In this document: positions 1,195 through 31,752 of the stretch, piece after piece | How positions within the stretch are numbered: position 1 is the first letter of the stretch | How the letters are laid out: each line of letters opens with the position of its first letter | Assembly: GCA_041649135.1 (NCBI GenBank) | Contig: JBAZNQ010000002.1 | Coordinates: forward strand, 1 to 39,237 | DNA length: 39,237 nt | From: Patescibacteria group bacterium | GTDB taxonomy: Bacteria > Patescibacteriota > Kazan-3B-28 | Direction of reading: 5' to 3' | Position numbers and translations under genes: made by a program | The notes under the pieces: generated by a model | Told to the model about the DNA's origin: nothing | Databases searched by the model: none | The model's input: the letters and a program-made list of their open reading frames with translations, nothing else

Positions 1195-1335
1195 TTAATT
1201 TCGCTTGTTTTTTAAATGGGGGGACCCCGAAATGGTCTAGCGAAGCGAACATTTTGGGGAGAAGGAAAAATGATTGAGCCCCATCAGCCGTTCTGCTGTA
1301 CGGCAGAACGTGCGTAGGGCGAGATTATTTTGACG

Positions 1336-1405
1336 TGGTACGCCCGGAGGGATTCGAACCCCCGACCTGTCCGACCGAAGTGTCGGACCGCTCATCCTCT
1401 TGAAC
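1336..1405 (-). pseudogene. tRNA-Arg-derived pseudo-copy with replaced anticodon arm
   Basis: 1336-1368 is identical to 1427-1459 (33 bp). A D-arm-like GTTCAAGAGGATGAGC is present, the anticodon arm is replaced by GTCCGAC-ACTTCG-GTCGGAC, and the 5' acceptor strand is absent. Confidence 0.7.
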
Positions 1406-1426
1406 GACAACTTGATATTTACTTTT

Positions 1427-1503
1427 TGGTACGCCCGGAGGGATTCGAACCCCCGACCTCTTAGTCCGTAGCTAAGCGCTCTAATCCCCTGAGCTACGGG
1501 CGC
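1427..1503 (-). tRNA. tRNA-Arg(ACG)
   Basis: GCGCCCG acceptor, anticodon arm CTTAG-CTACGGA-CTAAG, GGTTCGAATCC, CCA end, 77 nt. Confidence 0.97.
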
Positions 1504-1552
1504 ATAAAATATCTCATGTCCACTAAATGCTCCAACACTAAAAACGGGATTA

Positions 1553-2023
1553 TCACAAACGGAAGAATCGACCAATCTTGTCGATAGTGTCTTCGCCACG
1601 GCTGGCGTCCTCCGGTAGAAACTTTAGCAAGGTCTCTCTGACTTTGTCTACATTAGCATCCCCCAGTTGTAAAGTCAGCATTAATCCCCACTTTTTACTC
1701 GGTAACAGATTGACCACTCGGGTATCGTTCTCCAAAACTATCCAAAATGCCCGAAATTGGTCATACGACCGCAAAGCTTCACCCACCTTTACACCCGCTT
1801 CAGTCAGCTGATGTCCAAAATCTCTGGGTTTAGTTTGGCGCATTAAAATCGCCACCACTACGATCATCCCCACTACTGCCAAAGCCACCCACTCTTTTGT
1901 CCAGACTGACCAAGCCCCAATCATTGCCAAAGCCCCAATTCCAATCCACCAACCCCAAATTACCCCATTACTTTGGGTGGAAAATTCTGGAGCCCTCCAT
2001 TCATATAAAATTTTTTCTGTCAT
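1553..2023 (-). CDS. Conserved hypothetical membrane protein (two TM helices plus a small PH-like soluble domain), CPR-type
   Basis: 156-aa ORF with an EWRAPEF N-terminus, two hydrophobic segments and a beta-rich C-terminus. TATAAT lies 9 nt upstream of the ATG. Confidence 0.75.
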   Translation of the reverse strand: MTEKILYEWRAPEFSTQSNGVIWGWWIGIGALAMIGAWSVWTKEWVALAVVGMIVVVAILMRQTKPRDFGHQLTEAGVKVGEALRSYDQFRAFWIVLENDTRVVNLLPSKKWGLMLTLQLGDANVDKVRETLLKFLPEDASRGEDTIDKIGRFFRL

Positions 2024-2043
2024 AGCTCTTTCATTATACTAGC

Positions 2044-2129
2044 TGGCGGAGGGTGCAGGACTCGAACCTGCAAGGGCTTACGCCCACCAGTTTTCAAGAC
2101 TGGCGCAATAGCCGTTCTGCCAACCCTCC
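2044..2129 (-). tRNA. tRNA-Ser(TGA)
   Basis: GGAGGGT acceptor, CCAGT-CTTGAAA-ACTGG anticodon arm, long variable arm, GGTTCGAGTCC, CCA. Confidence 0.96.
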
Positions 2130-2229: not shown

Positions 2230-2273
2230 GCAGACCCTTCGAAGTTCTGCTGAACAGCAGAACGTAGTAGGGC
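2230..2273. repeat. Palindromic mini-element with a TTCTGC..GCAGAA module in its loop
   Basis: GCAGACCCTTCG...GTAGGGC arms match 31721-31752. The inner 18-mer matches 1291-1308 and 20814-20831. Confidence 0.7.
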
Positions 2274-2279
2274 TAGTTC

Positions 2280-12034: not shown

Positions 12035-12035
12035 A

Positions 12036-13344: not shown

Positions 13345-13557
13345 CATTCTCTCTTCTCTCTCTTTTCTCTCCTCTCTTCCCTCTTCTTTACTCTCTCTTC
13401 TCTCTTCTCTTCTCTCCTCTCCTCTCTCCTCTCTTCCCTCTTCTCTCTTTTCTTTTTTCTCTATTCTCTTTTCTCTTCTCTACTCTCTCTTCTCTACTCT
13501 CTCTTCTCTACTCTCTCTTCTCTACCCCTCTATTCTCTACTCTCTACTCTCTATTCT
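13345..13557 (+). repeat. G-free polypyrimidine tract (~213 bp)
   Basis: No G between 13345 and 13559. Includes CTCTCTCTTCTCTA x3 and CTCTACT/CTCTATT heptamers, and ends at the pilB ATG. Confidence 0.95.
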
Positions 13558-15216: not shown

Positions 15217-15229
15217 CCCCTCTTCTTTG

Positions 15230-15457
15230 GTCATTGCGAGAAGCACGCGACGAAGCAATCTTTTGTTCTTCGCGAAACCCTGCGTCGGTACGTCCACCGT
15301 AGCTTCTTGACCGTCGTAGCCTTGGCGAAGTCGGTTGACCAGAATCTTATAAATACTTTTTTCATCCCGCATCATTCCCGTCCGCCCAACTAGTCGAATA
15401 AACTCCAGCGGGAATCCATTTTCTACCCACCTTGTCATTCCCGCGTAGGCGGGAATC
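15230..15457. repeat. Cluster of GTCA-tagged palindromes plus a 30-bp palindromic element
   Basis: GTCATTGC..GCAATC (15230-15260), CTTGACCG..CGGT (15306-15335), ATCATTCCCG..CGGGAATC (15371-15416) and GTCATTCCCGCGTAGGCGGGAATC (15434-15457). Confidence 0.85.
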
Positions 15458-16668: not shown

Positions 16669-16754
16669 ACCCACCCCCACCCTAATTCGACCATTCAACA
16701 AAGAAACATTCCTTAGCCATTAAATGAACGGCCGTTCAATATTCGGCGCCTCTC

Positions 16755-16960
16755 CTCCGCCATTGGAGGAGAGTCGTTCTGAATTGAGCTAAATTGACGC
16801 AGGCGAAGGCGTTGTCTGACGAGCCCTTAGGGCGAGGAGTTCGCCGAGAGCGAAGAAAGTCAATTTAGCCAATGAATAGACTCGACGACTGGCGGGCGAC
16901 TTTGGTTACTTTCCTCAAGTCGGAAAGTAACCATCCGGTTAAGCGGTGATGAGACCGCTT
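16755..16960. repeat. ~210-bp structured dispersed repeat, copy 1
   Basis: Blocks CTCCGCCATTGGAG, CGAAGGCGTTGT, GAGGAGTTCGCCGA, CTGGCGGGCG and GGTTACTTTCC..GGAAAGTAACC occur in the same order at 24399-24620. Confidence 0.85.
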
Positions 16961-16981
16961 AGAACAATAAACATAAAAATG

Positions 16982-17094
16982 GATTCCCGCCTTCGCGGGA
17001 ATGACAGGTTAAAGATTCTGAGCAAGGAACGTCTGACGTTCTAAGCCAGAATGACGGGGAAAGATTGCTTCGTCACTACGCTCCTCGCAATGAC
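16982..17094 (-). repeat. Three tandem GTCA-tagged palindromes of different subtypes
   Basis: GATTCCC..GGGAATGAC (16982-17005), GATTCTG..CAGAATGAC (17014-17055) and GATTGC..GCAATGAC (17063-17094). Confidence 0.85.
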
Positions 17095-17126
17095 AAAGAA
17101 CAAACAAAAGCCATCCACAAGACGAT

Positions 17127-19311: not shown

Positions 19312-20670
19312 CTAATCGGTAATCACATTGGCATTGTACCATCTGTACTTCTCCTGCTCGAAAGAAGGAGGGAGAGTAGTGAGCGTTTGTTTTCCCACGG
19401 GTGGAGTGGGGAGCAGGCGGCTAGTCCGAGCGTTAGCGAGGATTGGCTTTGCCAACCGCCGATGAGGGGAGGACACACCTCGTTCTTCCCTCATGGTAAA
19501 ATACGCCGCCGCCCCGATCATCGCCGCATTGTCGGTACAATATTTAAATTCCGGAATAACGATTTTCAGCCCTAGTTCATTGGCTCGTCTTTGAACCTCT
19601 TCCCGCAATCGCCGATTGGCCGATACTCCACCGCCAATGATAATCGTCTTCGCTTTATACTTCTTCGCCGCCTTCAGCAATTTAACGACCAATACCTCCA
19701 CCACCGCTTCTTGAAACTCCCACGCGATCTCCGCAATCCTCTTTTTGGTGATTGCTTGATTATTGGTTATTGGATATTGGATATTAGCCGCAACAGCGGC
19801 TGTTGCTGTTTTTAACCCCGAAAAGCTAAAATCAAAATTATCCTCGTCCATCATCGGCCTCGGCAACCTCACCCTTTCCCCTGCTTTGGTGCTTGGTGCT
19901 TGGTGATTGAGTATTGTTTGATTATTGGTTATTGGATATTGGATATTAGCCGCAGCAGCGGCTATTGCTGTTTTTAACCCCGAAAAGCTAAAATCAAAAT
20001 TATCCTCGTCCATCATCGGCCTCGGCAACCTCACCTCCCCCTCCTTCGTTTTTAACTTTTCACTTTTAACTTTTAACTTTGCGGCTTCAGCCGCAATCGC
20101 GGGTCCCCCCGGGTATCCCAGCCCCAAAATCCGAGCCACTTTATCGAATGCTTCACCTGCCGCATCATCACGGGTACCACCTACATATTTATATTCCCCA
20201 TCGCTCCTCGTCAGTACGATTTCTGAATGTCCGCCACTTGTTACTAATGAAACCAACGGATACTCAATTTTTTCATCCCCCAACCAACCAGCGTAGATAT
20301 GCCCCAGTAAATGATTCACCGAAATCACTGGCTTATCCCACAAATAGCCCAAAGTCTTGGCCGCATTTACACCCACCAACAAAGACCCCAATAACCCCGG
20401 ATCGGTCGTTACCGCGATCGCATCAATTTGTTTTGGGGCCAGCCCAGTTTTACGCAACGCCAACTCGATCAACGGATAAATCGCTTCCAAATGTTGGCGG
20501 GACGCTACTTCCGGCACCACTCCCCCGAACTCTGCGTGTAGTTTTTCCTGACTCGCCACCAAAGAAACCAAAACCTTCAGCCGCTCCCGAAGGGAAGCCT
20601 TTGGCCTCGTTCCTTCCACCACCGCCACCGCCGTATCATCACAAGATGATTCAATTGCTAAAATACGCAT
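19312..20670 (-). CDS. tsaD: tRNA N6-threonylcarbamoyltransferase TsaD, with an internal duplication and a C-terminal insertion
   Basis: ILAIESSCDDT, GGVVPEVASRQH, NHLLGH, SGGHS, TRDDAAGEAFDKVAR, DFSFSGLKT (twice) and CTDNAAMI. The likely start is the ATG at 20670. Confidence 0.96.
   Translation of the reverse strand: MRILAIESSCDDTAVAVVEGTRPKASLRERLKVLVSLVASQEKLHAEFGGVVPEVASRQHLEAIYPLIELALRKTGLAPKQIDAIAVTTDPGLLGSLLVGVNAAKTLGYLWDKPVISVNHLLGHIYAGWLGDEKIEYPLVSLVTSGGHSEIVLTRSDGEYKYVGGTRDDAAGEAFDKVARILGLGYPGGPAIAAEAAKLKVKSEKLKTKEGEVRLPRPMMDEDNFDFSFSGLKTAIAAAAANIQYPITNNQTILNHQAPSTKAGERVRLPRPMMDEDNFDFSFSGLKTATAAVAANIQYPITNNQAITKKRIAEIAWEFQEAVVEVLVVKLLKAAKKYKAKTIIIGGGVSANRRLREEVQRRANELGLKIVIPEFKYCTDNAAMIGAAAYFTMREERGVSSPHRRLAKPILANARTSRLLPTPPVGKQTLTTLPPSFEQEKYRWYNANVITD
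19756..20035. repeat. In-frame intragenic duplication in tsaD (118-bp copies, 162-bp offset)
   Basis: 19756-19873 versus 19918-20035, with two substitutions found on manual comparison. Confidence 0.92.
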
Positions 20671-20749
20671 TCCGAGCGAATTATACCATAAAAACATCAG
20701 TCTAGAAGCCACTTTTTGGTATACTATAGTTAGGTTCAATCTCCCTTCC

Positions 20750-20847
20750 CGTCATTCTGGCAAACCCCTCCCTCCGTCATTCTGGCAAACCCCTCGTTCC
20801 GTCATTCTGGCAATTCTGCCGTACGGCAGAAGCGACCAGAATCTTAT
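20750..20847 (+). repeat. 25-bp tandem repeat of a GTCATTCTGG element arm
   Basis: CGTCATTCTGGCAA occurs at 20750, 20775 and 20800. Only the last copy closes with CCAGAATC. Confidence 0.85.
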
Positions 20848-20889
20848 AGAAAATGCGCCAAAGGCGCCACCAAAACTCTTCATCGCAGA

Positions 20890-21000
20890 TCCTCCGTAGC
20901 CTCGGCGTAGGAGGACTACCCAAACCTATTTCTCTCTTCTCTCTTCTCTCTTCTCTCTTCTCTCTCCTCTCTATTCTCTACTCTCTAATCTTTCCCCTCT
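20890..21000. repeat. 30-bp palindrome followed by a polypyrimidine tract
   Basis: TCCTCC-GTAGCCTCGGCGTA-GGAGGA-CTAC (20890-20919), then CTCTCTT arrays (~20926-21000) ending at the ATG at 21001. Confidence 0.85.
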
Positions 21001-22011
21001 ATGCGCCTCATCACTCCTACTCCTGAAACTTGGGACAACTATCTCATCAAAAATGAGCTTGGTCATTTTCTCCAAAGTTGGGCTTGGGGTGAGTTCCAAG
21101 AAAAGCTTGGTAATAAAATTTGGCGATTAGTAGTTGAAGACAACGGGCAAATTATTACCCAGCTTTTAGTAATCAAATTGAGTTTGGGGTTTGGTCAGTC
21201 CATTCTCTACTCCCCTCGTGGCCAACTGATTAATAAAAATCGTTCTCTCACCGCCACCCAAGCTGGTATCGCCTTGCTGCTTCAAGAGATTAAAAAAATT
21301 GCCACCCAAGAAAAAGTAGTTTGTTTTCGAATTGATCCCCCAGCCCCCGCCGATGATCTCACCACCGAACGCTTTTATGCTTCTAGCGGTTTTGTCAAAA
21401 ACCCCAAGTCCATTCAACCGCTCCACTCATTGATCCTCGACCTTCACCCAACCCCCGAACAATTACTCGCCACCATGAAAACCAAGACCCGCTACAATAT
21501 CCACATTGCCGAAAAGCACGGCATTACTGCCACCAAGTCTGACCATCCTTACGACTTCGATAAATTCCTAGAGCTCACCCGTGCTACCTCCGGTCGACAA
21601 GGATTCGCTTCCCATTCTGAAAACTATTACCGCACCCAATTTAATGTTCTCCACACAGCCAACCTGCAGGACCTTTGGGTTGCCCGTCATCAAGATAAAG
21701 CTATCGCCGCTATTCTAGTTAATTATTTTGGCGATACCGCTACTTATGTTCATGGCGCCTCCGACCACTCTCAACACGAACTCATGGCACCCCACCTGCT
21801 CCAGTTTGCGGCCATTCAAGATGCCCGCCGCCGTGGTTTTGCTCGCTACGATTTTTGGGGCATCAACCCTGACCCCAATCATCCTTGGGCTGGATTCACA
21901 CGATTCAAACGCGGGTTTGGCGGTACCGAGATTAAATATATCGGCACTCTAGAGCTCCCCATCAATCCCCTGTTATATAAATTGTATCGGCTCGTCAGCC
22001 GTTTACACTAA
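21001..22011 (+). CDS. FemABX family peptidoglycan interpeptide bridge enzyme
   Basis: HFLQSWAWGEF, LYSPRG, KTKTRYNI, YVHGAS, YDFWGI and GFTRFKRGFGG, adjacent to murE. Confidence 0.92.
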   Translation: MRLITPTPETWDNYLIKNELGHFLQSWAWGEFQEKLGNKIWRLVVEDNGQIITQLLVIKLSLGFGQSILYSPRGQLINKNRSLTATQAGIALLLQEIKKIATQEKVVCFRIDPPAPADDLTTERFYASSGFVKNPKSIQPLHSLILDLHPTPEQLLATMKTKTRYNIHIAEKHGITATKSDHPYDFDKFLELTRATSGRQGFASHSENYYRTQFNVLHTANLQDLWVARHQDKAIAAILVNYFGDTATYVHGASDHSQHELMAPHLLQFAAIQDARRRGFARYDFWGINPDPNHPWAGFTRFKRGFGGTEIKYIGTLELPINPLLYKLYRLVSRLH

Positions 22012-22063
22012 GCCACAAGAGCATAGAGAGTAGAAAGCATCTCATCTCTCATCTCTACCCATC

Positions 22064-23401
22064 ATGAAGAAACTTCTCAAAAAAATCCTAGGCCGGGCCT
22101 TCTCCCCTCAATCGTTTCTTTACGACACCTACCACAAAACTCGCGGCATGACCGCCGCTATGTTGTATGGTTTCCCCGCCCGCAAAATGATCGTCATCGG
22201 TATTACTGGCACCAACGGCAAAACTACTACCGCCAATTTGCTTGGCCAAATCCTAGAAACTACAAACGAGAAAATTGGACTGGCAACTACCGTCAATTTC
22301 TGGATTGGCCACAAGCGCTGGATCAATGAAACCAAAATGACGACCTTCAGCCCCTTCAAACTCCAAAGCCTTTTAAAAGAAATGTCCCAAGCCGGTTGTC
22401 GTTACGCCATCGTCGAAACCTCCTCCCACGCCATCGCCCAACATCGTACTTGGGGCATTGACTACGACGTAGCGGTTTTTACCAACCTCACTCCCGAGCA
22501 TCTCGACTTTCACCCTACCTTCGAACATTACCGCAATACCAAACTCCGACTTTTCAAAAGTTTATTTCGCTCTCGCCGAAAAACTAATACCCCCAAAATT
22601 GCCGTCATCAACTTTGACGATCCAGTTGCCAGTCATTTTGCCCAAGTTCCGGCTGACCAAAAATTTTTCTATTCAATTAACAAGCTTGAAACTAACGACA
22701 CCAAAGAAAGTCCCATTACCGCCAATATTATCCATGCCGACGAGTCCAGCACGACTTTCGATTTAAACACCCCCTTCGGGAAAACTTCTATTACCCTACA
22801 TCTCCCAGGCCGTTTTAATGTTAGCAATGCTCTGGCCGCCGCCAGCACCGCCCTTGGGCTTGGCATACCTTTAGAAAAAATCAAGCAAGGGTTGGAACAA
22901 GTTAAAGTCGTCCCTGGCCGAATGGAACGCATCGAAGCTGGTCAGCCCTTCACTGTCATTGTTGACTATGCTCATACTCCCGATGGTTTTGAACAAGTTC
23001 TCTCCACCACCCGTTCGTTTACCAAGGGCAGGCTTATTACCGTATTCGGTGCCGCTGGTAATCGCGACAAAACTAAACGTCCAAAATTAGGCGAGATCGC
23101 CAGCCGCTATGCTGACGTTTTAGTCTTAACTGAAGAAGACCCCGCCAACGAAGATCCAAACCAAATCATTGAGGCGATCAAGTCCGGCATCCCAGCTCGT
23201 TTTCGCGATGATGACAATCTCTTCACTATCCTCTCTCGCCCAGACGCTCTCCGCCACGCCTTCAAGCTTGCCCAGCCGTCAGATACTGTGATGCTATTAG
23301 CCATGGGTGCTCAAACCAAGATGGCTGTAAAAACTGGCCTCATCCCCTATGATGAACGAGACTTCGCCCGAAATCTGCTACACTCAATAGTGAACCGCTG
23401 A
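22064..23401 (+). CDS. murE: UDP-N-acetylmuramoyl-tripeptide synthetase MurE
   Basis: GITGTNGKTTT, ETSSHAIAQHR, FTNLTPEHLDFH, PGRFNVSNALAA, PGRME, VDYAHTPD and VFGAAGNRDKTKRP. Confidence 0.93.
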   Translation: MKKLLKKILGRAFSPQSFLYDTYHKTRGMTAAMLYGFPARKMIVIGITGTNGKTTTANLLGQILETTNEKIGLATTVNFWIGHKRWINETKMTTFSPFKLQSLLKEMSQAGCRYAIVETSSHAIAQHRTWGIDYDVAVFTNLTPEHLDFHPTFEHYRNTKLRLFKSLFRSRRKTNTPKIAVINFDDPVASHFAQVPADQKFFYSINKLETNDTKESPITANIIHADESSTTFDLNTPFGKTSITLHLPGRFNVSNALAAASTALGLGIPLEKIKQGLEQVKVVPGRMERIEAGQPFTVIVDYAHTPDGFEQVLSTTRSFTKGRLITVFGAAGNRDKTKRPKLGEIASRYADVLVLTEEDPANEDPNQIIEAIKSGIPARFRDDDNLFTILSRPDALRHAFKLAQPSDTVMLLAMGAQTKMAVKTGLIPYDERDFARNLLHSIVNR

Positions 23402-23472
23402 TAAAAATACCCCCTCCATCAGTCCACCAGTCCATTTGTCTATTAGTCTATAAAAACTATAAGTCTAACCAT

Positions 23473-24315
23473 ATGATCGAATTTGATCAAAACCTCAATC
23501 CAGTCGAACCACCAAAACCAAACAATCCATTTACTCCTCCACCAGTCATGCCGTCACCCACTCCTCGAACATCCATGACTCCACCGAATGGTCGTGGTTT
23601 AGGTTTGGTCTTGGGCGTTGTTGGTATCATCGTAGTTGCCGCCGTATTGTTGATCACTCTCGGTGCCAGACCCTCAACTACTACTGGCCAAATGGAAGGT
23701 TTAAGCGTCAACGCTGACGCTACTGTTTACGCTTCTCCCGACATTGCTCGGGTGAACGTTGGTATCGTCAAGACAGCCAAAACTGTGTCTGAAGTCGAAA
23801 AGGCTTTGTCGGATGCTTCCACTACTATTCAACAAGCCATCATTGATGCTGGAGTAAAAGAAGCGGACATTAAAACTGTCGATTACAGCATCTATCCAGA
23901 ACAAACTTACGTTAACGGTTCCGTCAGCCGCATCACCGGCTATAGTGGCCGTCATAGTATGGAAGTTACTATTCGTGAGCTCGACAAAACCGATACTGTG
24001 TTGTCTAGCGTTACTGCCGCTGGCGCCAACGAAGTCGGCCAACTTACCTTCACTCTTGAAAATCCAGACGACAAGTTGGCTGAAGCCCGCAAAGAGGCCA
24101 TGAAGAAGGCAAAGGACAAAGCTAAACAAATCGCCAAGGACGGCGACTTCACTTTAGGAAGATTGATTTCTGTTAATGAATATTCCAACACCCCCAGCCC
24201 AATGTATGACTACACTAAGGGTTCGGGTATGGGTGGTGCTGAAGTTACTCCCAGCACCGAGTCCGGCAGTCTCGCAATGCAGGTCAACGTTACTCTGGTC
24301 TACAAAATTCGCTAA
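23473..24315 (+). CDS. SIMPL (DUF541) domain protein
   Basis: TM segment followed by VYASPDIARVNVG, DIKTVDYSIYP, AGANEVGQLTF and LGRLISVNE. Confidence 0.88.
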   Translation: MIEFDQNLNPVEPPKPNNPFTPPPVMPSPTPRTSMTPPNGRGLGLVLGVVGIIVVAAVLLITLGARPSTTTGQMEGLSVNADATVYASPDIARVNVGIVKTAKTVSEVEKALSDASTTIQQAIIDAGVKEADIKTVDYSIYPEQTYVNGSVSRITGYSGRHSMEVTIRELDKTDTVLSSVTAAGANEVGQLTFTLENPDDKLAEARKEAMKKAKDKAKQIAKDGDFTLGRLISVNEYSNTPSPMYDYTKGSGMGGAEVTPSTESGSLAMQVNVTLVYKIR

Positions 24316-24357
24316 CCAGCAAAACTGTCCTGAAACATCGAAACAACTTTTAGTCTT

Positions 24358-24385
24358 AAAAGAGATGGCCACCGCCATCTCTTTT
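24358..24385. terminator. Bidirectional intrinsic terminator
   Basis: AAAAGAGATGGC-cacc-GCCATCTCTTTT, a perfect 12-bp stem downstream of the SIMPL gene. Confidence 0.8.
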
Positions 24386-24398
24386 ATTCCCCTGCTGT

Positions 24399-24620
24399 CT
24401 CCGCCATTGGAGTCCGAGCGTCCTGAATTAGCAAAATTATCGCAGCGAAGGCGTTGTTTGACGACCAGAGGGAGGAGTTCGCCGAAAGCGAAGAAAGCTA
24501 AGTTTGTTATGGCGAACAATCGCAACGACCCCAAAGGGGAGCCTTAGGCTCTGGCGGGCGGCTTTGGTTACTTTCCCCAAGAGGAAAGTAACCGCCGGTT
24601 CAGCGCGGCGCAGAGCGCTG
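24399..24620. repeat. ~210-bp structured dispersed repeat, copy 2
   Basis: Colinear with 16755-16960 and carries the 11-bp inverted repeat GGTTACTTTCC/GGAAAGTAACC at 24566-24593. Confidence 0.85.
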
Positions 24621-24699
24621 GAAAGAAAAATAAACAAGCAGAAAGTGCCAATTGGTCGAGCGCAATTTGGCGCTCGCCCCCCCACCCCTGTGTAAGGGG

Positions 24700-24705
24700 T
24701 ATAAT
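24700..24705 (+). promoter_or_regulatory. -10 box 6 nt upstream of the polA ATG (possible leaderless mRNA)
   Basis: TATAAT-aagcct-ATG with no Shine-Dalgarno sequence. Confidence 0.5.
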
Positions 24706-24711
24706 AAGCCT

Positions 24712-26880
24712 ATGGCAAATAAAAAGAAACTAGTCCTCATCGACGGCAACGCATTGGTTCATCGTGCCTTCCACGCTTTCTCCCGAGCCAATCTCGCTTC
24801 CCCCAGTAGTCAACCCACCGGCGCTATTTATGGTTTTGCCGTGATGTTAATTAATATCTACACTCGCCTCAAGCCCGACTACATTGCTGTAGCCTTTGAT
24901 ACCGACGCCCCAACTTTCCGCCACAAAGAATATGTCGAATACAAGGCCACTCGCATCAAAGCTCCGCAAGAACTCTACGACCAAATCCCAGAAATCCAAG
25001 CCCTAGTCGAGAGCTTCAATATTCCCATTTTTCTAAAAGACGGTTTCGAAGCCGATGACATTATCGGCACTCTTGCCCGCCAAGCTCCCAGTACGCTCGA
25101 CACCTACATTTCCACCGGCGATATGGACGCTCTCCAATTAGTGAACGACCATACTTTTGTCTACGCTCCTCGCAAGGGTTTTTCCGACATTATTGTCTAC
25201 ACTCCCGAAGAAGTTTTAAAAACTAAAGGCCTCCGCCCCGACCAAATCATCGACTTCAAAGGTCTCCGTGGCGATCCTTCCGACAACATCCCCGGCGTCG
25301 CGGGTATTGGCGAAATCACCGCCCTGAAACTCCTGCAGGAGTTTGGTGACTTAGAAAACATCTACAAAAATCTGGAGCAGATTTCCGGCACCGTTGCCGA
25401 AAAGTTAAAGAAGGGTGAACAGGACGCGATCAAAAGTAAGGGGCTAGCCACCATTCACACCACTATTCCCATCAAGCTAGATTTAGACAAGGCCGAGGCT
25501 ATCGCTTTTGATAAATTCCGGGTTGCTGAATTCTTTCGCCGAATGGGCTTCCGAACTCTTTACGACAAAATCCCCGCCGGCACGCTGACGACGGGAGGGC
25601 AACCATCTTTTTTTGACAAAGCCCAGCCCAAGTTAATAAAAACTGGGGCTGGGGAAAACCAGCTCATAAAAGATCTCGACAAAAAACTCGACCCCATTCT
25701 TCGCAAGATGGAGAAGGCGGGCATTTTGTTGGATATCAAGCTGCTTAATGATTTAAATACCCAGCTCTCCACCCGCATCGAGAAGTTGAAAAAGAATATC
25801 TACAAATATTCCAAAGTTGAATTTAACATCGCCTCCCCTAGCCAACTGGGAAACTTCCTATTTAAAGAACTTAAGCTCCCAACCCTAGACATTGGCAAAA
25901 CCCAGAAAGGCTATTCCACCGCTGTGTTGGAGCTGGAAAAAATCTACCGCGAACATCCCGTCATCAAACACATTTTGGAATTCCGCCAACTCGAAAAACT
26001 CCGCAATACCTACCTCGAAACTCTGCCCAAATTAGTCGACAAGAATAATCGGGTACACACCACTTACGCGCAGGATACTTCCACCGGCAGACTTTCCTCC
26101 AAAGAACCAAACCTTCAAAACATTCCTATCCGAAGCGAAATTGGCGCCGAACTTCGTAAAGCGTTTATCGCCCCCAAAGGCTTTCGCTTAATCTCCGCCG
26201 ACTACTCCCAAATCGAGCTCCGCGTTATCGCCTCACTCGCCCACGATGTCCGCATGATTCGCACTTTTAATAAAGGCGAGGATATTCATACTGCCGTCGC
26301 TGCCGAAGTTAATGGCGTCAAATTAAAGGACGTCACCAAAGATATGCGCCGCAATGCCAAAACCATCAATTTCGGAATTATCTATGGTGTCTCCCCCTAC
26401 GGCCTCGCCGCTCGGACGAATATGACCATCCATCAAGCCACTAATTACATTCACAAATACTTCGAACTTCATCCCGAGATCAAACAATATATGGAAGATA
26501 CCGCCGCATATGCGAAGCAACACGGCTATGTCGAAACTTTGTTTGGCCGTCGTCGCTACATCCCCGAAATCCGCTCCAAGATTCCGGCGGTTCGTTCCGC
26601 CGCCTCTCGTGCCGCTATCAATATGCCAGTCCAAGGCACTGCCGCCGACTTACTTAAAGCCGCCATGATCGAGCTTGCCAAAGCCTTACCTAAAGTCAGT
26701 CCCGATTCTCGGATGCTTCTCCAAGTCCACGACGAACTGGTACTGGAAGTCCCGACTAAGGATATTAAAAAAGTCGCCACTCTCGTCCGTAACAAGATGG
26801 AAAATGTCTATCACCTCGATGTCCCCATTCACGTCGACATCGAAGCTGGTGTAAACTGGGGAGAAACTAAAAAGATATGA
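24712..26880 (+). CDS. polA: DNA polymerase I (5'-3' exonuclease plus polymerase, no proofreading domain)
   Basis: LIDGNALVHRAFHA, FEADDIIGT, GDPSDNIPGV, STGRLSSKEPNLQNIP, ADYSQIELR, AKTINFGIIYG and LQVHDEL. The ATG at 24712 is preferred as start. Confidence 0.97.
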   Translation: MANKKKLVLIDGNALVHRAFHAFSRANLASPSSQPTGAIYGFAVMLINIYTRLKPDYIAVAFDTDAPTFRHKEYVEYKATRIKAPQELYDQIPEIQALVESFNIPIFLKDGFEADDIIGTLARQAPSTLDTYISTGDMDALQLVNDHTFVYAPRKGFSDIIVYTPEEVLKTKGLRPDQIIDFKGLRGDPSDNIPGVAGIGEITALKLLQEFGDLENIYKNLEQISGTVAEKLKKGEQDAIKSKGLATIHTTIPIKLDLDKAEAIAFDKFRVAEFFRRMGFRTLYDKIPAGTLTTGGQPSFFDKAQPKLIKTGAGENQLIKDLDKKLDPILRKMEKAGILLDIKLLNDLNTQLSTRIEKLKKNIYKYSKVEFNIASPSQLGNFLFKELKLPTLDIGKTQKGYSTAVLELEKIYREHPVIKHILEFRQLEKLRNTYLETLPKLVDKNNRVHTTYAQDTSTGRLSSKEPNLQNIPIRSEIGAELRKAFIAPKGFRLISADYSQIELRVIASLAHDVRMIRTFNKGEDIHTAVAAEVNGVKLKDVTKDMRRNAKTINFGIIYGVSPYGLAARTNMTIHQATNYIHKYFELHPEIKQYMEDTAAYAKQHGYVETLFGRRRYIPEIRSKIPAVRSAASRAAINMPVQGTAADLLKAAMIELAKALPKVSPDSRMLLQVHDELVLEVPTKDIKKVATLVRNKMENVYHLDVPIHVDIEAGVNWGETKKI

Positions 26881-27557
26881 CAGTAGAACACGCCTTAGCC
26901 CGAAGACAGAGCTGGGGTCAAATGCTAGGTCGGTTAGGAGACCTACTATTCAGCAATGCCCTGACCGATTCCGTCCTCAGAGAACCATCACACAGAGCCG
27001 CACTAGACAAACTAGGACGGGTTAGAATATTAATGAAGAAAATTGGTGAAATATACCAAAAGAACCAAATCAATAATATTGACCTAAAAGTCCTAGAGAC
27101 ATACATAGATTCTCTCTTATTCCTGATAAGAAGTACCTACGATCTGAGTGCGCAGGTACTGAGGAAGAGAGTTCCTAATAGTATCACTCTGCCAGTCAGT
27201 CTCGCTAAAATTGAAAAGATGCTTCAAAGCAATACTATTAGTTTACCGCATACCCTAGACACACTAACCCCCGCCCATTCAGGATTTAAAATGATTAAAA
27301 CCTTAAGAGATGAAGCCAAGATGGGAAGGGCAATTTTATCACTCTATAAGAAACGGGAATCTATCTTTATTAAGGTTAAGACGCCACAACAAAAAGTTAT
27401 TTTACACCAAGAGCTCACCACCTTTTTAAACTGGCATCTACTCTGGCTACACCTCAGCCTCAGTTCCTTTTTTATAGATCTTTTCGGGGAAAACCTGTTC
27501 AACCAACATGTAAAGATTCCCAGAAGAGAATTTATTAAATTAGTAAAAAATGCCTGA
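26877..27557 (+). CDS. Hypothetical protein, AT-richer than its neighbours
   Basis: 226-aa ORF overlapping the polA stop (ATGA). Helical, with weak HEPN-like resemblance but no intact RxxxxH. Confidence 0.55.
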   Translation: MTVEHALARRQSWGQMLGRLGDLLFSNALTDSVLREPSHRAALDKLGRVRILMKKIGEIYQKNQINNIDLKVLETYIDSLLFLIRSTYDLSAQVLRKRVPNSITLPVSLAKIEKMLQSNTISLPHTLDTLTPAHSGFKMIKTLRDEAKMGRAILSLYKKRESIFIKVKTPQQKVILHQELTTFLNWHLLWLHLSLSSFFIDLFGENLFNQHVKIPRREFIKLVKNA

Positions 27558-27639
27558 GCTCACCCCCACCCACGACGCCACCAAACCCTCATTTTTGGTT
27601 AGATTGGTGAGATTGGGATAAATTGTTTAGATTATCTCT

Positions 27640-28170
27640 ATGTCCCGCACCATCATCGAAATCAAAGCCCGCACCAACCAGCCCGACAAGATTCGGGAGA
27701 CTTTAAAAAATCTTGGTGCCGACTTCAGAGGCATCGACCACCAAATTGATACCTACTTCAAAGTCACTTCTGGCCGCCTCAAGCTTCGTGAAGGCAACAT
27801 TGAAAATCATTTAATCTACTACCAGCGTCCCGACCAAGCTGGCCCAAAACAATCAGATGTCATCCTCCTCCCCACCGGGCCCAACTCACCCATTAAAGCC
27901 ATCCTCACCCAATCAATGGGTGTCTTGGCTGTCGTCGATAAACATCGCGAAATCTACTTCATCGACAATGTAAAATTCCACATCGACCAAGTTGTAAACC
28001 TTGGCTCATTTATGGAGATTGAAGCTATTACCAACAACGACGAGCTCACCCGCGACCAACTCCTCGCCCAATGCGAACACTACAAAAAACTCCTCGAAGT
28101 TACTGACTCCGACCTCCTCGAAAAATCCTATAGTGACATGGTTCTTTCCCAGTCCACCCCCATTGATTAG
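27640..28170 (+). CDS. CYTH domain / class IV adenylate cyclase-like protein
   Basis: EIKAR, HQIDTYF, RLKLREG, VVDKHREIY, FHIDQV..LGSFMEIEA and KSYSDM. Confidence 0.9.
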   Translation: MSRTIIEIKARTNQPDKIRETLKNLGADFRGIDHQIDTYFKVTSGRLKLREGNIENHLIYYQRPDQAGPKQSDVILLPTGPNSPIKAILTQSMGVLAVVDKHREIYFIDNVKFHIDQVVNLGSFMEIEAITNNDELTRDQLLAQCEHYKKLLEVTDSDLLEKSYSDMVLSQSTPID

Positions 28171-28178
28171 ATTGTCAT

Positions 28179-28268
28179 AGACCCTTCGTCTTGTCCACCA
28201 TAGCTCTCGACCTTCGTAGCCTTGGCGAAGTAGGTTTAGCGACGGTGGAAGCTTTAGCGAAGTAGGGG
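28179..28268. repeat. Three nested 30-bp palindromic elements
   Basis: Removing 28190-28249 restores a 30-mer identical to 31723-31752. Removing 28206-28235 restores the middle 30-mer. Confidence 0.85.
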
Positions 28269-28301
28269 TGAAGATTGGAATAAATTGGTTAGATTATCCT
28301 T

Positions 28302-29252
28302 ATGCCCGAGCTCCCCGAAGTCGAAACCGTCGTCCGCGGCCTCTCCCGACATATCGTCGGGCAAAAAATCAAAACCATCCACGTCCTCACCAAAACCAGC
28401 TTCTCTGGTCTACCAGTCCATAAGTCTATTGGTCTATTAGTCAAATCCGTTTCCCGCCGCGGCAAAGGCATTATCATCGAGCTTGCGAAGCCCGGCGTAG
28501 CTCGCAAGGGCGAAGACGGGTCGAACTCCTTATCTCTCCTCATTCATTTAAAAATGACCGGCCAGCTCATTTGGGTTCCCCCCATCCGCCGTCGCTCAAA
28601 GAGCTATGGCGGACATCAACGGCTTAACTTTGGTCATCCTACGGATGACTTCACAAATAGTATGCCGTCTCGACACACTCGGGTTTGGTTCGAATTAACC
28701 CCCAAAGGGGCCCCTTCGGGGCAAAGGCACACCAATTATTTGTACTTCAACGATATGCGCCGGTTTGGTTGGGTTAAACTCACCCCCACCGCCGAAATCT
28801 CCAAAGACAAATTCTTCTCCAAACTCGGATTAGAACCTTTCGACAAAAACTTCACCCCCGCTTTTTTATATACCGCCATTCAACATCGGCCAAAGAGCAA
28901 TATTAAAGCCATCATCCTAGACCAAACTCTAGTTACCGGCATCGGCAACATCTATTCTGATGAGGCCCTTTTTTATGCCGGCATAAAACCTACTCGACTA
29001 GGACGTTCTATTACCAAAGCCAACACCACTAAATTAGTTTCTGCCATCAAAAAGGTGCTAACAAAAGGCATCAAGTATTCTGGCACCAGCATTAATACTC
29101 ACCGCACCCCCGAAGGTTCGATGGGCCAAATGCAAAACTACCTCGCCGTTTACGACCGCAAGGGTCAACCCTGCCGCAAGTGTAAAACCCCAATCATCAA
29201 AATCCGCGTCGCTAGTCGCGGCACCCATTACTGTCCAAGTTGTCAGCTATAA
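28302..29252 (+). CDS. mutM: Formamidopyrimidine-DNA glycosylase with repeat-derived insertions
   Basis: MPELPEVET, RRGK, HLKMTGQL, NDMRRFG, LDQTLVTGIGNIYSDEALF and Zn finger CRKC...CPSCQ. Confidence 0.96.
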   Translation: MPELPEVETVVRGLSRHIVGQKIKTIHVLTKTSFSGLPVHKSIGLLVKSVSRRGKGIIIELAKPGVARKGEDGSNSLSLLIHLKMTGQLIWVPPIRRRSKSYGGHQRLNFGHPTDDFTNSMPSRHTRVWFELTPKGAPSGQRHTNYLYFNDMRRFGWVKLTPTAEISKDKFFSKLGLEPFDKNFTPAFLYTAIQHRPKSNIKAIILDQTLVTGIGNIYSDEALFYAGIKPTRLGRSITKANTTKLVSAIKKVLTKGIKYSGTSINTHRTPEGSMGQMQNYLAVYDRKGQPCRKCKTPIIKIRVASRGTHYCPSCQL

Positions 29253-29288
29253 GCTCAAGCAGCAATCGCACCTGCCACAAATAACAGC

Positions 29289-30308
29289 CTAGCGAATGGA
29301 GTTGACAATAATTTGGGCTGTCGCTTGTTGGCCAGAAGAACCGTACTCTACTTGGACTACAAAATTATGTTCATTGATTACAAAATACCGATTGATTTCG
29401 GCATCTCCGTTTCGAATGGCGACATACTTGTAATCCCTTCCTCGCGTTGTTTTCATTAGCGAGGAAATAATTGGTTCCCCCCAACTTGAGCTAAGACCAG
29501 CAATAAAGTTCGATATAGCTGAATCTATAGACGTACCTGCTTGTTTGGTCAGAGAAACACTAATAGGATAATCTCCGCTCCAAGATAGTGTGGGATTGTT
29601 GAGATTTAGTAGCACTACATAAGAACCAGTGGTAGGAAATTCCTCTGAAGCAATCTGCCAGCTGCTGGGATAATCAAATACAAAATCCGTACCCTGCGGA
29701 GAATATGTAGACAAAGACCCGCCCCCAATAATAAACCTAGTGAATATGTCAGCTGAATCAAAAGCTAATAGCTTACCATTCCAAGCGATCTGCGCAGTCC
29801 AGCTTTGATACTCGTAGACTGGACGGAAGTAGAGATCGTAAGTGCCATTGCTGGCAGAGTTTGCGATCTTTACATTCCAAGAAATAGTAAATTGGGCATT
29901 TGGAGCCACATCTAAGCCATCGTAATACGCCATCCGATTGCCATTCAGCACAAAGCTTGAAGCATCCAGCCATGGAGTTTGGGCATCGCCGCGAACACCA
30001 ATGGCATAAGAACCGACCGGGACTTGCTTGCCGGCAGGAACCGTACCCAAAGAGGTCTTATTTCTAATTGTCGTATTCGACATATTTTGTAAGGTCACTG
30101 ACATAGCGACAGTATCGCCTTGGTTAGCAGTAACGTAGTGAGCTTTGCCATCGGCTGTGATTTGAGCTGGAGTTTGACCAACCCATCTATAATGATAAGT
30201 GTCAGCCGCAGAAGCAATCTGCGTTGGAATAATCATCCAAGCAGTAATCACACCAGTCATCACCAAAGAACCGACCTGTGATAATTTTTTAAGAAGTAAG
30301 TTGCGCAT
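29289..30308 (-). CDS. Secreted protein with an Ig-like (NBR1-Ig-like) domain and a PsbP-like C-terminal domain
   Basis: Signal peptide ending ASA-AD, YRWVGQ...VTLQN...GTYDLYFRPVYE...W pattern, then YSPQGTDFVFDYPSSW. Confidence 0.65.
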   Translation of the reverse strand: MRNLLLKKLSQVGSLVMTGVITAWMIIPTQIASAADTYHYRWVGQTPAQITADGKAHYVTANQGDTVAMSVTLQNMSNTTIRNKTSLGTVPAGKQVPVGSYAIGVRGDAQTPWLDASSFVLNGNRMAYYDGLDVAPNAQFTISWNVKIANSASNGTYDLYFRPVYEYQSWTAQIAWNGKLLAFDSADIFTRFIIGGGSLSTYSPQGTDFVFDYPSSWQIASEEFPTTGSYVVLLNLNNPTLSWSGDYPISVSLTKQAGTSIDSAISNFIAGLSSSWGEPIISSLMKTTRGRDYKYVAIRNGDAEINRYFVINEHNFVVQVEYGSSGQQATAQIIVNSIR

Positions 30309-30393
30309 AATTAGTTAAGAGAGTTTTGTCCAATATAGCTACACTAATCATACACCCAACCACTCTGTCAGAAATAACGCGCATTTCCCAGCG

Positions 30394-30498
30394 CGTCATC
30401 CCCGATTTAGTCGGGGATCCAGAAAGAAAAAAGAAATATAAAGTGGAAACAAAAAATGTTTTTGTTCTTTTCTAGATTCCCACTTTCGTGGGAATGAC
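30394..30498. repeat. Convergent pair of GTCA-tagged palindromes
   Basis: CGTCATCCCC..GGGGATC (30394-30419) and GATTCCCAC..GTGGGAATGAC (30475-30498) flank an A-rich spacer. The second unit lies in the recF 3' end. Confidence 0.85.
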
Positions 30499-31587
30499 AG
30501 GGTTTATACTGCCGCCCTCAACCATATTCACCGCCGGCTGCTCGAATAGCTCGGCTATTTGCTTATCATTAGTAGTTACAAAACTTTGGACCCCCACTAA
30601 TGCCCGTGCCAACTTAGCCTGCCGCTCATCATCTAATTCTGAAAAAATGTCGTCTAGTAAGTAAACCGGAGCATCATGAAGCTTGGTTTTTAGTATCTCT
30701 CCTTCCGCCAGTTTCAATGCCATCACCGCACTCCGGAACTCCCCCCGTGAGGCCGCCGCCCGCATGTCATCACCATTCAAAATAAACAGCACATCATCCC
30801 GATGAATGCCTTTGGTGGTATTGGCCCGAACAACATCCATCGATCTCGCTCCCGCCAATCCCGCCCCATACATTTTCGGTGTCTCAAAATTTAAACTCGG
30901 CACGTAAGAAATTTTCAAAATATCTCCCGATTCCCCGAACCAGTCATGGTAATACTGGTTCGCCAATCGCCCCACTTCTTCCATTGCTTGTTTGCGCTTT
31001 TCTACAATTCGCGCCCCCAATTCACTCATCTTCTCATCCCAAACTTCCAACTCTCCCTCCCCACTCCGACCTTGTTTAATCATCAATAAAAGTTGATTGC
31101 GCTGACGCAGCACCTTCCAATAATCCACTAGGTCCTGTCCGTATTCCAAATCAAACCTAGCGATCAATAAATCCAAAAACTTCCGCCGTTTCTGTGGGCT
31201 CAACCGGATTAGATCAATATCTTCTGGTGAGAATAATACTACCGGCATTTGTCGAATTATCTCCACCCGCTGGACAACCACCCCATTTAGCTTCGTCGTC
31301 TTACGCGCGAATCCTCCTTCCATCATCCAGATCATTTCCGCCCGCTTTATTTCCCCGTCTTTTTCAAACTCAAATTCCACCCTCGCAAATTCCTGCCCAT
31401 GTTGAATGAGTGAACGCTCATTACTCACCCGAAATGACCCCCCTGCCGCCACCGCGAACATCCCCTCCAAAATGTTCGTTTTGCCCTGTGCATTCCTCCC
31501 CACCAAAATATTCGCACCTGAAACTGGAGTTAATTCAATTGGCCCCAGATTCCGAAACTGCTGGAATTTAGCTTTAATAATCTTCAT
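30472..31587 (-). CDS. recF: DNA replication and repair protein RecF
   Basis: QQFRNL, Walker A GRNAQGKTNILE, VVLFSPED, RRKFLD, GIHRDD, ASRGEFRS and YLLDDIFSELD. Confidence 0.96.
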   Translation of the reverse strand: MKIIKAKFQQFRNLGPIELTPVSGANILVGRNAQGKTNILEGMFAVAAGGSFRVSNERSLIQHGQEFARVEFEFEKDGEIKRAEMIWMMEGGFARKTTKLNGVVVQRVEIIRQMPVVLFSPEDIDLIRLSPQKRRKFLDLLIARFDLEYGQDLVDYWKVLRQRNQLLLMIKQGRSGEGELEVWDEKMSELGARIVEKRKQAMEEVGRLANQYYHDWFGESGDILKISYVPSLNFETPKMYGAGLAGARSMDVVRANTTKGIHRDDVLFILNGDDMRAAASRGEFRSAVMALKLAEGEILKTKLHDAPVYLLDDIFSELDDERQAKLARALVGVQSFVTTNDKQIAELFEQPAVNMVEGGSINPVIPTKVGI

Positions 31588-31589
31588 CT

Positions 31590-31752
31590 CGTCCTTCTGG
31601 CTCTTGACCGTCGCAGCCTCGGCGTAGTCGGTTGCCCAGAATCTTATCGCTTATCTTCTATACGATTCTGGCGTCGCTTCACTCCCCAGAATGACATTTT
31701 GCCGCTTTGGTTAGATTGTCGCAGACCCTTCGTAGCTTTAGCGAAGTAGGGG
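31590..31752. repeat. Composite repeat cluster between dnaN and recF
   Basis: CGTCCTTCTGG..CCAGAATC (31590-31643) containing the 30-mer 31603-31632, an inverted GATTCTGG..CCAGAATGAC (31664-31695), and the 30-mer at 31723-31752. Confidence 0.85.

Follow-up and report, generated by a model that had tools for sequence, protein, structure and literature searches.

The first 39,237 nucleotides of contig 2 (C2; JBAZNQ010000002.1) of a Patescibacteria group bacterium from the Kazan-3B-28 lineage form the stretch that was analyzed, called the window here; the genome, referred to as G000, comprises 739,554 bp in two contigs (C1 and C2). Core genes fill the window: three tRNAs, a cluster resembling a type IV secretion system (T4SS), pilB, a femAB-like gene, a Mur ligase, polA, dnaN, dnaA, rnpA, and yidC, together with valS (17127-19307, minus strand), tsaD (19312-20739, minus strand), mutM (28302-29252), and recF (30472-31587, minus strand). 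Between and within these genes, positions 1291-31752 carry at least six classes of small repeats. An earlier note on this DNA counted at least five and took them for one interlocking set of mobile micro-elements in a stretch that lacks any transposase. This lack was confirmed with Pfam on 30 of the 32 main window open reading frames (ORFs), which contain no transposase or recombinase domain, and an Rfam scan of the window returned the three tRNAs only. As to the repeats, we consider it probable that the window samples a burden of small repeats that extends across the genome and comprises three or more independent systems. Most of these repeats belong to known kinds, and together they do not make up one new mobile system. 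What is new is the setting in the candidate phyla radiation (CPR), the extent to which essential enzymes have been rewritten in frame, a candidate pairing of an SLX1-like nuclease with one of the hairpin classes, and the strand polarity of several families.

The six classes differ in size and architecture. GTCAT-type hairpins consist of the arms GTCATTCCCGCG and CGCGGGAATCC around a loop, with the stem variants CTGG, GCGAG, and CCCAC (for example at 15434-15456, 16983-17005, and 30476-30495). B-type hairpins are 30 nt long and combine a conserved loop, TAGCYTTRGCGAAG, with variable stems (at 15318, 16331, 20898, 28218, 28250, 31615, and 31734), while A-type palindromes have the form GTTCTGC-N4-6-GCAGAAC (at 1289, 2244, and 20813). 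The remaining classes are small GC hairpins (CCCCAAAGGGG and CCTTCGGG), tandem arrays of period 7, 8, or 9 with many unit sequences, and a structured element of about 210 nt (16745-16970 and 24395-24625). All lie far above chance genome-wide: TRF reports 601 rows against 115 in a Markov shuffle (305 against 13 at a score of at least 40), and perfect hairpins whose stem reaches 8 bp or more number 453, against 103 in the shuffle. About 74% of the GTCAT hairpins (including five that overlap gene edges) and about 71% of the arrays lie outside ORFs, and orthologous intergenic regions that measure 2-65 nt in the congener G002 measure 52-261 nt here.

Relatives, including the congeners G001, G002, G003, and G004, were sampled by TRF and pattern searches. 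G000 holds 39 hairpins with the Neisseria Transformation Sequence (NTS) motif introduced below, 31 B-type motifs, 8 GIY-YIG genes, 8 genes of family PF05635, and about 8 arrays per 20 kb sampled; in the same order, the values are 21, 45, 7, 7, and 4-5 for G003, 5, 5, 4, 2, and 1 for G002, 0, 1, 1, 0, and 0 for G001, and 0, 0, 1, 2 (weak), and 0 for G004. The repeats have expanded in the G000 lineage and in its congener G003, and not in the sister genomes G001 and G004.

Judged by its consensus, the largest hairpin class is the published motif of the Ssn proteins, a group of GIY-YIG single-strand nucleases. A literal literature search for GTCATTCCCGC led to the 2025 Nature Communications article that described these enzymes together with the NTS, CGTCATTCCCGCGMAVGCGGGAATCYRG, and the degenerate Ssn-related motif (SRM) (PMC11893778). 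The G000 consensus, CGTCATTCCCGCGnAGGCGGGAATCCAG, equals the NTS, with identical arms (CGTCATTCCCGCG and GCGGGAATCC) on either side of the loop and a 5' GTCAT that gives the hairpin its orientation. A regular expression for the SRM matches 52 times, compared with 1.8 times in shuffles; the Neisseria NTS expression has 12 exact matches, NTS cores number 38, and the core GTCATTCCCGCNNNNGCGGGAAT matches 39 times where its reversed control matches nowhere. The hairpins are not strand-biased (23:16).

SsnA is a 94-amino-acid, single-domain GIY-YIG protein that binds and cuts the NTS hairpin only in single-stranded DNA, and ssn genes are typically flanked by the motif, the NTS-ssnA-NTS layout having been likened to an insertion sequence (PMC11893778). 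G000 contains six small GIY-YIG ORFs. The type-1 ORFs encode 95-108 residues with PF01541 as the sole domain, and two genes are bracketed by inverted perfect NTS copies: C1:138557-138778, between C1:138500 (+) and C1:138846 (-), and C1:14841-15062, between C1:14750 (+) and C1:15102 (-). The remaining small GIY-YIG genes are flanked by hairpin variants of their own. The NTS-gene-NTS layout recurs in five relatives (G003, G007, G015, G017, and G023). The type-1 protein has 2558 homologues of 93-130 residues across phyla and is 60-70% identical to GIY-YIG proteins of 93-98 residues from several of them; the small GIY-YIG proteins found no useful match in NCBIfam, and a PDB search with the type-1 protein gave only a weak UPF0213 match. 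The type-1 proteins may be regarded as putative Ssn-like partners of the NTS/SRM hairpins. Recognition of the NTS by proteins of this type is established only in other bacteria and would hold for G000 by analogy.

Together with the dRS3 repeats of Neisseria, the Ssn system is among the closest known systems. Besides consensus and gene layout, the likeness extends to dozens of dispersed copies with many stem variants and to a number of nuclease genes that tracks the repeat count across genomes. The differences lie in the host, a 0.74-Mb CPR (Kazan) genome from a group, the Patescibacteria, that is absent from the Ssn article (PMC11893778), in the roughly one quarter of copies that lie in ORFs, some of which give codons and a stop codon to core genes, in left arms that are stuttered in tandem, and in the presence of several paralogous nuclease/hairpin pairs in one small genome.

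Two NTS copies in the window carry T-rich tails and have terminator-like scores. One, GTCATTCCCGCGTAGGCGGGAAT followed by CTATTTTC, lies downstream of pilB (15434-15456, plus strand) and has an exact NTS core with a stem of 8 and a loop of 4; the other, an NTS core followed by CCATTTTT, lies downstream of valS (16983-17005, minus strand). An SRM-like element, GTCATTGCGAG...GAAGCAATC, was recognized from its sequence at 17061-17095 (minus strand), with a second copy at 15228-15262 (plus strand). Logan word depth over 17061-17095 reaches about 2200, against about 26 for the genome (about 85-fold), with many different flanks in landfill and groundwater metagenomes, so this 33-nt GTCATTGCGAG-type element is common to many organisms of the community. 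At 20749-20860 (plus strand), three stuttered left arms (CCGTCATTCTGGCAA, period 25; TRF period 25 x 2.6) are followed by an A-type palindrome between GTCATTCTGGCAA and CCAGAATCTTAT, in an intergenic region of 261 nt that measures 65 nt in G002. Such stuttering of the SRM left arm and its 5' flank beside a complete hairpin, with a period of 21-25 nt and 2.5-3.7 copies, is seen at 20749-20813 of the window, at C1:114499-114575, downstream of the GIY-YIG gene at C1:5451, and at two loci of G003 (L066 and L067). Because cleavage by SsnA falls a few nucleotides upstream of the NTS (PMC11893778), these stutters may be the repair scar of nuclease cutting.

The B-type hairpins point to a second, candidate pairing. 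Two of the six small GIY-YIG proteins are of another type, with 80-83 residues that cannot be aligned with type 1 and SLX1 as the best solved relative, and the gene for one of them, at C2:182900, has nested B-type units immediately upstream. Among 80 fetched loci that encode type-2 homologues from many phyla, the loop motif AGCYTYRGCGWAG, 13 nt long, is present in 21; with few exceptions it sits no more than 150 nt upstream of the gene, and in many cases 6-30 nt separate it from the ATG. Chance alone would give about 0.05 such loci, and the motif in reverse, used as a control, is in none of the 80. When these loci are aligned, the loop is conserved and the stems change in compensation (CCCTCCG/GGAGGG, CCCTGCG/GCAGGG, and CCCTTCG/GTAGGG). 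The SRM definition does not cover this motif, and a limited literature search found no description of a pairing between an SLX1-like GIY-YIG protein and the B-type hairpin. In G000 the motif lies on the plus strand in 30 cases and on the minus strand in one, in both contigs and both replichores. Window examples, all on the plus strand, are a free hairpin at 31717-31759 (unit 31723-31752), a hairpin at 16314-16356 whose structure was folded and which has an 86% copy at 20881-20923, and, upstream of recF (31602-31647), a B-type core that is enclosed by an outer TTCTGG...CCAGAATCTTAT hairpin, together a 91% copy of 15305-15350.

The tandem arrays are a third system. The most frequent period by far is 7, with 171 of 486 loci compared with 14 of 115 rows in the shuffle; lengths peak sharply at 30-32 nt, and 26 unit families have at least two arrays each. 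Read on the plus strand, the arrays contain 1717 T, 1135 A, 952 C, and 421 G, and in 101 of 127 cases unit families keep one orientation, where the null maximum is 97. Genes of family PF05635, the four-helix-bundle family of the 23S rRNA intervening sequence (IVS) protein, number eight in G000, and seven have arrays within 150 nt (P about 1e-6, given a probability of 0.107 for a random locus). Arrays stand on either side of four of these genes, in three cases as clearly inverted pairs such as AGTTAAA / TTTTAAC at C1:329925 and C1:330322. Alternatively, arrays may arise in place by slippage and unequal recombination under strand-biased mutation, with PF05635 genes merely sitting in array-rich spots. 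The many unit sequences agree with this, as do the different units found at one protein site in three genera and the array-bracketed duplication in tsaD (both described below), which fits unequal recombination, and the fact that array composition follows the genome-wide C-rich strand. The dominance of period 7, the sharp length peak, and the inverted flanking of PF05635 genes do not, and congeners with the same skew are nearly free of arrays; we consider such an origin unlikely.

Many arrays abut genes. In forty-four cases the array stops no more than 25 nt from the start codon of a plus-strand gene. Read as mRNA, these arrays consist of 71% pyrimidine, with G at 7%, and none is separated from the ATG by a Shine-Dalgarno sequence. 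In the window, a CT-rich heptamer array of about 30 units (13347-13557, plus strand) ends at the ATG of pilB and a TTCTCTC array (20930-21001, plus strand) at that of the femAB-like gene, both as delimited by TRF. It is conceivable that the repeats serve the host under selection, as leaders free of Shine-Dalgarno sequences, as sites for transformation control or termination, or as signals of strand or replication orientation. The start-adjacent arrays, the two T-tailed NTS copies after pilB and valS, and the 30:1 strand ratio of the B-type units favor such roles, and there are parallels in the TAACTGA repeats (PMC4679880) and in Neisseria, where Ssn and the NTS modulate transformation (PMC11893778). 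However, G001, G002, and G004 use these genes too and are nearly devoid of the elements, genera differ in the array units that they carry at a shared site, and in the replichore whose genes run on the minus strand, arrays of these families are in antisense orientation, past stop codons or within genes. We therefore hold a primary host function to be rather improbable. Since the same families are antisense in the other replichore and G002 manages with junctions of only 2-65 nt, the leader role is read as a consequence of where insertions are tolerated. As to the earlier suggestion that the repeats shape leaders and terminators, there is modest support for terminators, in the form of occasional exaptation of NTS copies.

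Short tandemly repeated repetitive (STRR) heptamers are known from heterocystous cyanobacteria. The Beggiatoaceae have TAACTGA repeats, heptamer arrays that end by start codons and are likewise unexplained (PMC4679880). The G000 arrays share with both the 7-nt period, the 2-6 or more copies, the mostly intergenic location with many arrays ending a few nucleotides before a start codon without a canonical ribosome-binding site, the occurrence of one kind of repeat in unrelated phyla, and the lack of an explained function. They differ in having dozens of unit sequences in place of one or three, lengths that peak at 30-32 nt, pyrimidine-rich sequence on one chromosome strand whatever the gene orientation, in-frame copies in valS, tsaD, and mutM, and inverted pairs around PF05635 genes. 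Membership in the canonical cyanobacterial STRR was rejected, the host being a Kazan-group CPR bacterium and the units being different. The earlier note had named a published family that accounts for the repeats as a ground for refuting its proposal, and in part there is one: the NTS/SRM-Ssn system (PMC11893778) covers the largest hairpin class, and heptamers at start codons are a known kind (PMC4679880).

That the elements behave as inserted units is supported by exact nesting and by their absence at orthologous sites of congeners. The clearest case lies at 28179-28279 (plus strand), where three 30-nt B-type hairpins each sit in the loop of the next, with loop motifs at 28218 and 28250. Once the inner 60 nt (two units) are taken out, what is left reads AGACCCTTCGTAGCTTTAGCGAAGTAGGGG and agrees with the free copy at 31723-31752 in 30 of 30 positions; no target duplication accompanies these insertions. 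Classes also exchange loops. A B-type stem, CCCTTCG..GTAGTAGGG, has its loop replaced by the A-type palindrome GTTCTGCTGAACAGCAGAAC (2230-2275, plus strand), and the A-type palindrome at 20813 sits within an SRM hairpin, GTCATTCTGG..CCAGAATC; B-type cores lie within TTCTGG..CCAGAATCTTAT hairpins at 15305 and 31602. A-type palindromes occur on their own as well, as CGTTCTGC-N6-GCAGAACG at 1289-1310, with others at 2244-2263, 20813-20832, and 35385-35404. On nesting and loop exchange the earlier note was right. MITEs (miniature inverted-repeat transposable elements) were rejected as an explanation, as the nested insertions lack target duplications and there is no parent insertion sequence: transposase domains are missing from the window ORFs scanned, and PF01797 and PF01548 from the whole genome. 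The small dispersed repeats (SDR) of Nostoc, with units of about 24 nt, are reportedly the subject of a 2008 article by Elhai et al. in Genome Research. They are said to nest in each other and in heptamer arrays and to enter conserved genes without breaking the frame, much as seen here; phylum and sequences differ, and we know of no partner gene proposed for them.

Inside genes, the repeats have been read into protein. The earlier note claimed in-frame entry into valS, tsaD, mutM, and recF; alignment with orthologues upholds added peptides in ValS (two arrays), TsaD (four sites), and MutM (four sites), and RecF shows no internal insert relative to G002. In ValS, a CATTGGA x 4.6 array (18011-18042, plus strand) is read on the minus strand as MSNVQCPMSN. 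At this site G000 has TGTCCAA units, G008 has CGACCAA, and G006 has AAGTTAAAAGTGAT, and the array-poor G001, G002, and G004 have no arrays there. A second array, CTTAATT x 4.1 (17478-17506, plus strand), is read as KNQESRIKG and adds seven residues relative to congeners.

TsaD measures 475 residues as the longest ORF, or about 452 from the conserved start, compared with 325-353 in orthologues, and has four extra segments. The first is a duplication of 54 codons (LPRPMM..FSFSGLKTA), visible as two 123-nt copies 162 nt apart (19751-20035, minus strand), both of which terminate in an array of the CCAATAA type. In G003, CCAAT-type arrays occupy the two sites without any duplication, which suggests that unequal recombination between arrays produced it. 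The others are a TTTTAAC x 4.4 array (20050-20080, plus strand; GTTAAAA units in the gene sense, read as KLKVKSEKLK, with an AAATTAC array at the same site in G006), a small hairpin, CCAAAGGCTTCCCTTCGGG (20574-20604, minus strand), read as RPKASLRE and absent in G002 and G006, and some 40 codons inserted close to the C-terminus (SPHRRLAKPILANARTSRLLPTPPVGKQTLTTLPPSF; 19329-19449, minus strand) that are absent from all four aligned relatives. MutM contains an octamer array in a variable loop (28401-28442, plus strand; GLPVHKSIGLLV), a 30-nt insert encoding PGVARKGEDG (28491-28520, plus strand), a B-type-like hairpin in reverse orientation (28585-28613, minus strand) read as IRRRSKSYGG, and twin CCCC/GGGG hairpins (28699-28722, plus strand) read as TPKGAPSGQ. 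Relatives have other inserts at the same MutM loops, including the GTCATCCTGAAC-type peptide SRHAELVSAS..KILKQV. At recF, an SRM hairpin, GTCATTCCCACGAAAGTGGGAATCTAGA (30472-30505, minus strand), of the GTCATTCCCAC type, supplies the last 8 codons (PVIPTKVGI) and the TAG stop; RecF of G002 ends differently.

In valS, tsaD, and mutM the inserts do not interrupt the reading frame. Preservation of frame as a property of the insertion mechanism, as the earlier note proposed, is not borne out: since about three quarters of the copies are intergenic, selection is the better explanation, and the 30-nt B-type unit is frame-neutral by its length. The nearest parallel is found in the Rickettsia palindromic elements (RPE), of about 100-150 bp, which lie in frame in conserved protein genes (Ogata et al. 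2000; reviewed in PMC10969869). Like these, the G000 repeats are palindromic, add peptides, presumably at the surface and without loss of function, have no transposase of their own, and inhabit a reduced genome. They were rejected as RPE since, despite the in-frame insertion, their units measure 20-35 nt and are unrelated in sequence; candidate partner nuclease genes, moreover, can be identified.

The window has two further features. The structured element of about 210 nt (16745-16970, plus strand, with a second copy at 24395-24625 found by blastn) has at least 12 copies genome-wide, all on the plus strand except one fragment, with covarying long-range stems and loops that tolerate hairpin inserts. 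It has no match in Rfam even at E values up to 1 and is a candidate for a structured RNA or a single-strand DNA element. Near the start of the window, the last 33 nt of a tRNA-Arg gene (1427-1503) recur 58 nt downstream of it, in a copy of the T-arm, acceptor strand, and CCA (1336-1380, minus strand). A repeated tRNA 3' end is what integration at that site usually leaves behind. The earlier note listed a possible tRNA copy among the products of the micro-elements; the copy is real and looks like an att-type duplication, probably the scar or minimal cassette of a tRNA-targeting integrase and thus of a mobile system apart from the micro-repeats. A hairpin, GTCCGACACTTCGGTCGGAC, precedes the copy at the place of the anticodon arm.

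The chromosome itself is asymmetric. Across the plus strand of the whole genome there are 190,508 C and 150,378 G, so Chargaff's second rule is broken, and the GC skew of the window (1-39237) is about -0.2. The skew is stepped: one replichore has about -0.23 and the second about 0, with gene orientation switching at dnaA nonetheless, and the relatives G002 and G006 repeat this step. Measured on the plus strand at third codon positions, the replichore whose genes run on the minus strand has a skew of -0.42 and the second replichore one of -0.14, regardless of which strand a given gene occupies. Transcription-coupled skew was rejected as the cause of the disparity, since third-position skew tracks chromosome region and not gene strand. 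In G000 the B-type units, the arrays, and the 210-nt element are all co-oriented with the C-rich strand; the B-type strand ratio in G006 is 7:1 for the skewed half and 4:3 for its counterpart. For CPR Microgenomates, whole-chromosome G/C disparity has been described and unidirectional replication proposed (PMC7143001). G000 likewise has one strand that is C-rich along the whole chromosome; its skew, unlike theirs, is stepped with gene orientation flipping at dnaA, and a link to repeat orientation does not feature in that article (PMC7143001).

From the B-type pairing and this polarity we derive a tentative joint proposal, which we regard as possible and, taken whole, rather doubtful. Bacterial SLX1/UPF0213-like GIY-YIG proteins of 80 residues would recognize the 30-nt AGCYTYRGCGWAG-loop hairpin, in a pairing conserved from CPR bacteria to Alphaproteobacteria, Verrucomicrobiota, and Planctomycetota, and would let it spread into the loops of its own copies; the 30:1 placement on the C-rich strand, a bias common to the heptamer arrays and the 210-nt element, would record insertion into one particular single strand.

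Whether the classes form one system or several can be judged from their distribution. The earlier note favored one interlocking system, with a single enzyme acting in trans by a mechanism that itself preserves the frame. Nesting speaks for this, with A-type palindromes in B-type and SRM loops and a B-type core in GTCATTCTGG-type hairpins, as does the joint rise and fall of all classes across five congeners; the B-type unit is exactly 30 nt long, and several in-gene inserts span 10 codons. The claim that the classes co-cluster holds for hairpins with hairpins (92 cases, 62 expected). Arrays and hairpins, by contrast, share intergenic regions at chance level (46 against 45.95 expected, P = 0.53 by permutation), and a physical association between them was rejected on this ground. 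The classes differ in strand behavior, the NTS hairpins being non-polar where B-type units are almost exclusively on one strand, each has its own flanked partner gene, and most GTCAT hairpins and arrays lie outside ORFs, as selection predicts. G023 has 23 NTS but only one B-type motif, which argues that the systems are separable. With at least three gene-plus-repeat pairings and independent placement of arrays and hairpins, a single interlocking set is not borne out, and we consider it very unlikely.

The earlier note was largely right in what it observed, and mobilization in trans, also part of its proposal, is a sensible idea: plausible candidate partner genes do exist elsewhere in the genome, among them the six small GIY-YIG genes, and the spread would be their work. 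GIY-YIG was one of three mobilizers that the note had named; the other two, Y1/RAYT and IS110, are missing. Repetitive extragenic palindromes and bacterial interspersed mosaic elements (REP/BIME), with their REP-associated Y1 transposases (RAYT), and the single-strand transposition of IS200/IS605 are further systems for comparison, considered in the Ssn article as well (PMC11893778). They resemble the G000 repeats in having short extragenic hairpins in mosaics and a small gene between inverted copies of its own repeat, and the strand-specific orientation of some G000 families recalls single-strand insertion at replication forks. The putative G000 partners are GIY-YIG nucleases instead, and the whole genome has no Y1_Tnp (PF01797) match, with controls detected, and no IS110 (PF01548) match; REP/RAYT and IS110 were rejected as mobilizers.

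Under the reading that we favor, of several independent systems, the GTCAT hairpins would be Ssn-related motifs whose partners are the single-domain GIY-YIG genes of about 95 residues bracketed by inverted NTS, the B-type hairpins of 30 nt, whose loop is AGCYTYRGCGWAG and whose stems covary freely, would be the cis partner of the SLX1/UPF0213-like small GIY-YIG nuclease, and the STRR-like heptamer, octamer, and nonamer arrays would be tied to the PF05635 genes that inverted arrays flank. The nucleases may recognize the hairpins when these extrude in single-stranded DNA; a nick, after which another copy serves as template, would insert or replace units, preferentially in the loops of existing ones, and the arrays would turn over by slippage and unequal recombination. 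Selection would then keep the copies that do no harm, at gene junctions (5' leaders and occasionally terminators) and, in frame only, in protein surface loops. From recognition by the nuclease and the copying mechanism to selection as the cause of frame preservation, every step of this spread is, for G000, what we infer.

Several points weigh against this reading. The strong polarity of the B-type units and arrays is not predicted by it without an extra assumption. The roles of the partner proteins are predictions from the genes alone, and with a strict detector just two of the six small GIY-YIG genes have perfect flanking GTCAT hairpins. In Neisseria, Ssn cuts incoming single-stranded DNA and limits transformation, and mobilization of the NTS is not what was demonstrated (PMC11893778). 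The co-variation of the classes is drawn from five congeners without phylogenetic correction and would be expected just as well of a genome that tolerates selfish DNA of any kind; with only five related genomes, a shared cause and general permissiveness are not separable. Finally, the genome is a metagenome assembly, and Logan contigs of public runs break at the repeats, as might be seen if chimeric joins or contaminating reads in assembly or binning had created the pattern. Three public metagenome runs contain the region (two landfill, one groundwater), and a contig of the groundwater run (X2) has zero differences to the window over 21618-24552, arrays 22012-22063 and 23402-23472 included. 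The open frames of valS, tsaD, and mutM and the related elements in independently assembled relatives likewise contradict an artefact, to which we give next to no credence.

The region also varies between strains and relatives. Identical to the window over these 2.9 kb, the groundwater strain differs by about 5% across 28585-30194, in mutM and the gene after it; this recombination mosaic points to recent exchange between strains. Compared with positions 20-40 kb of G002 (locus L014), window 26877-30308 differs in gene content within an otherwise syntenic stretch: the CYTH gene (27640-28170) and a PsbP-like gene of 339 residues (29289-30308) have no counterpart of the same size there. MutM is 39% identical to the window copy in G002 and 72% in G004, and PolA (24652-26880) has 742 residues here and 722 in G002.

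For the proteins concerned, ValS, TsaD, and MutM offer clean natural cases of essential-enzyme loops that have been repeatedly rewritten by repeats, down to a single ValS site that carries three different arrays in three genera. For the Ssn/NTS system, characterized only in Neisseria and a few Pseudomonadati, the findings would mean an extension to ultra-small CPR bacteria in which several nuclease-hairpin pairs occur together. If the B-type pairing is true, a second GIY-YIG subfamily would have its own conserved hairpin across phyla. The polarity of the repeat families provides a handle, from sequence alone, on how CPR genomes with G/C disparity replicate, and if the joint proposal is true as well, the repeats would be built-in markers of exposure or replication in one direction for most of the chromosome, as proposed for other CPR genomes of this kind.

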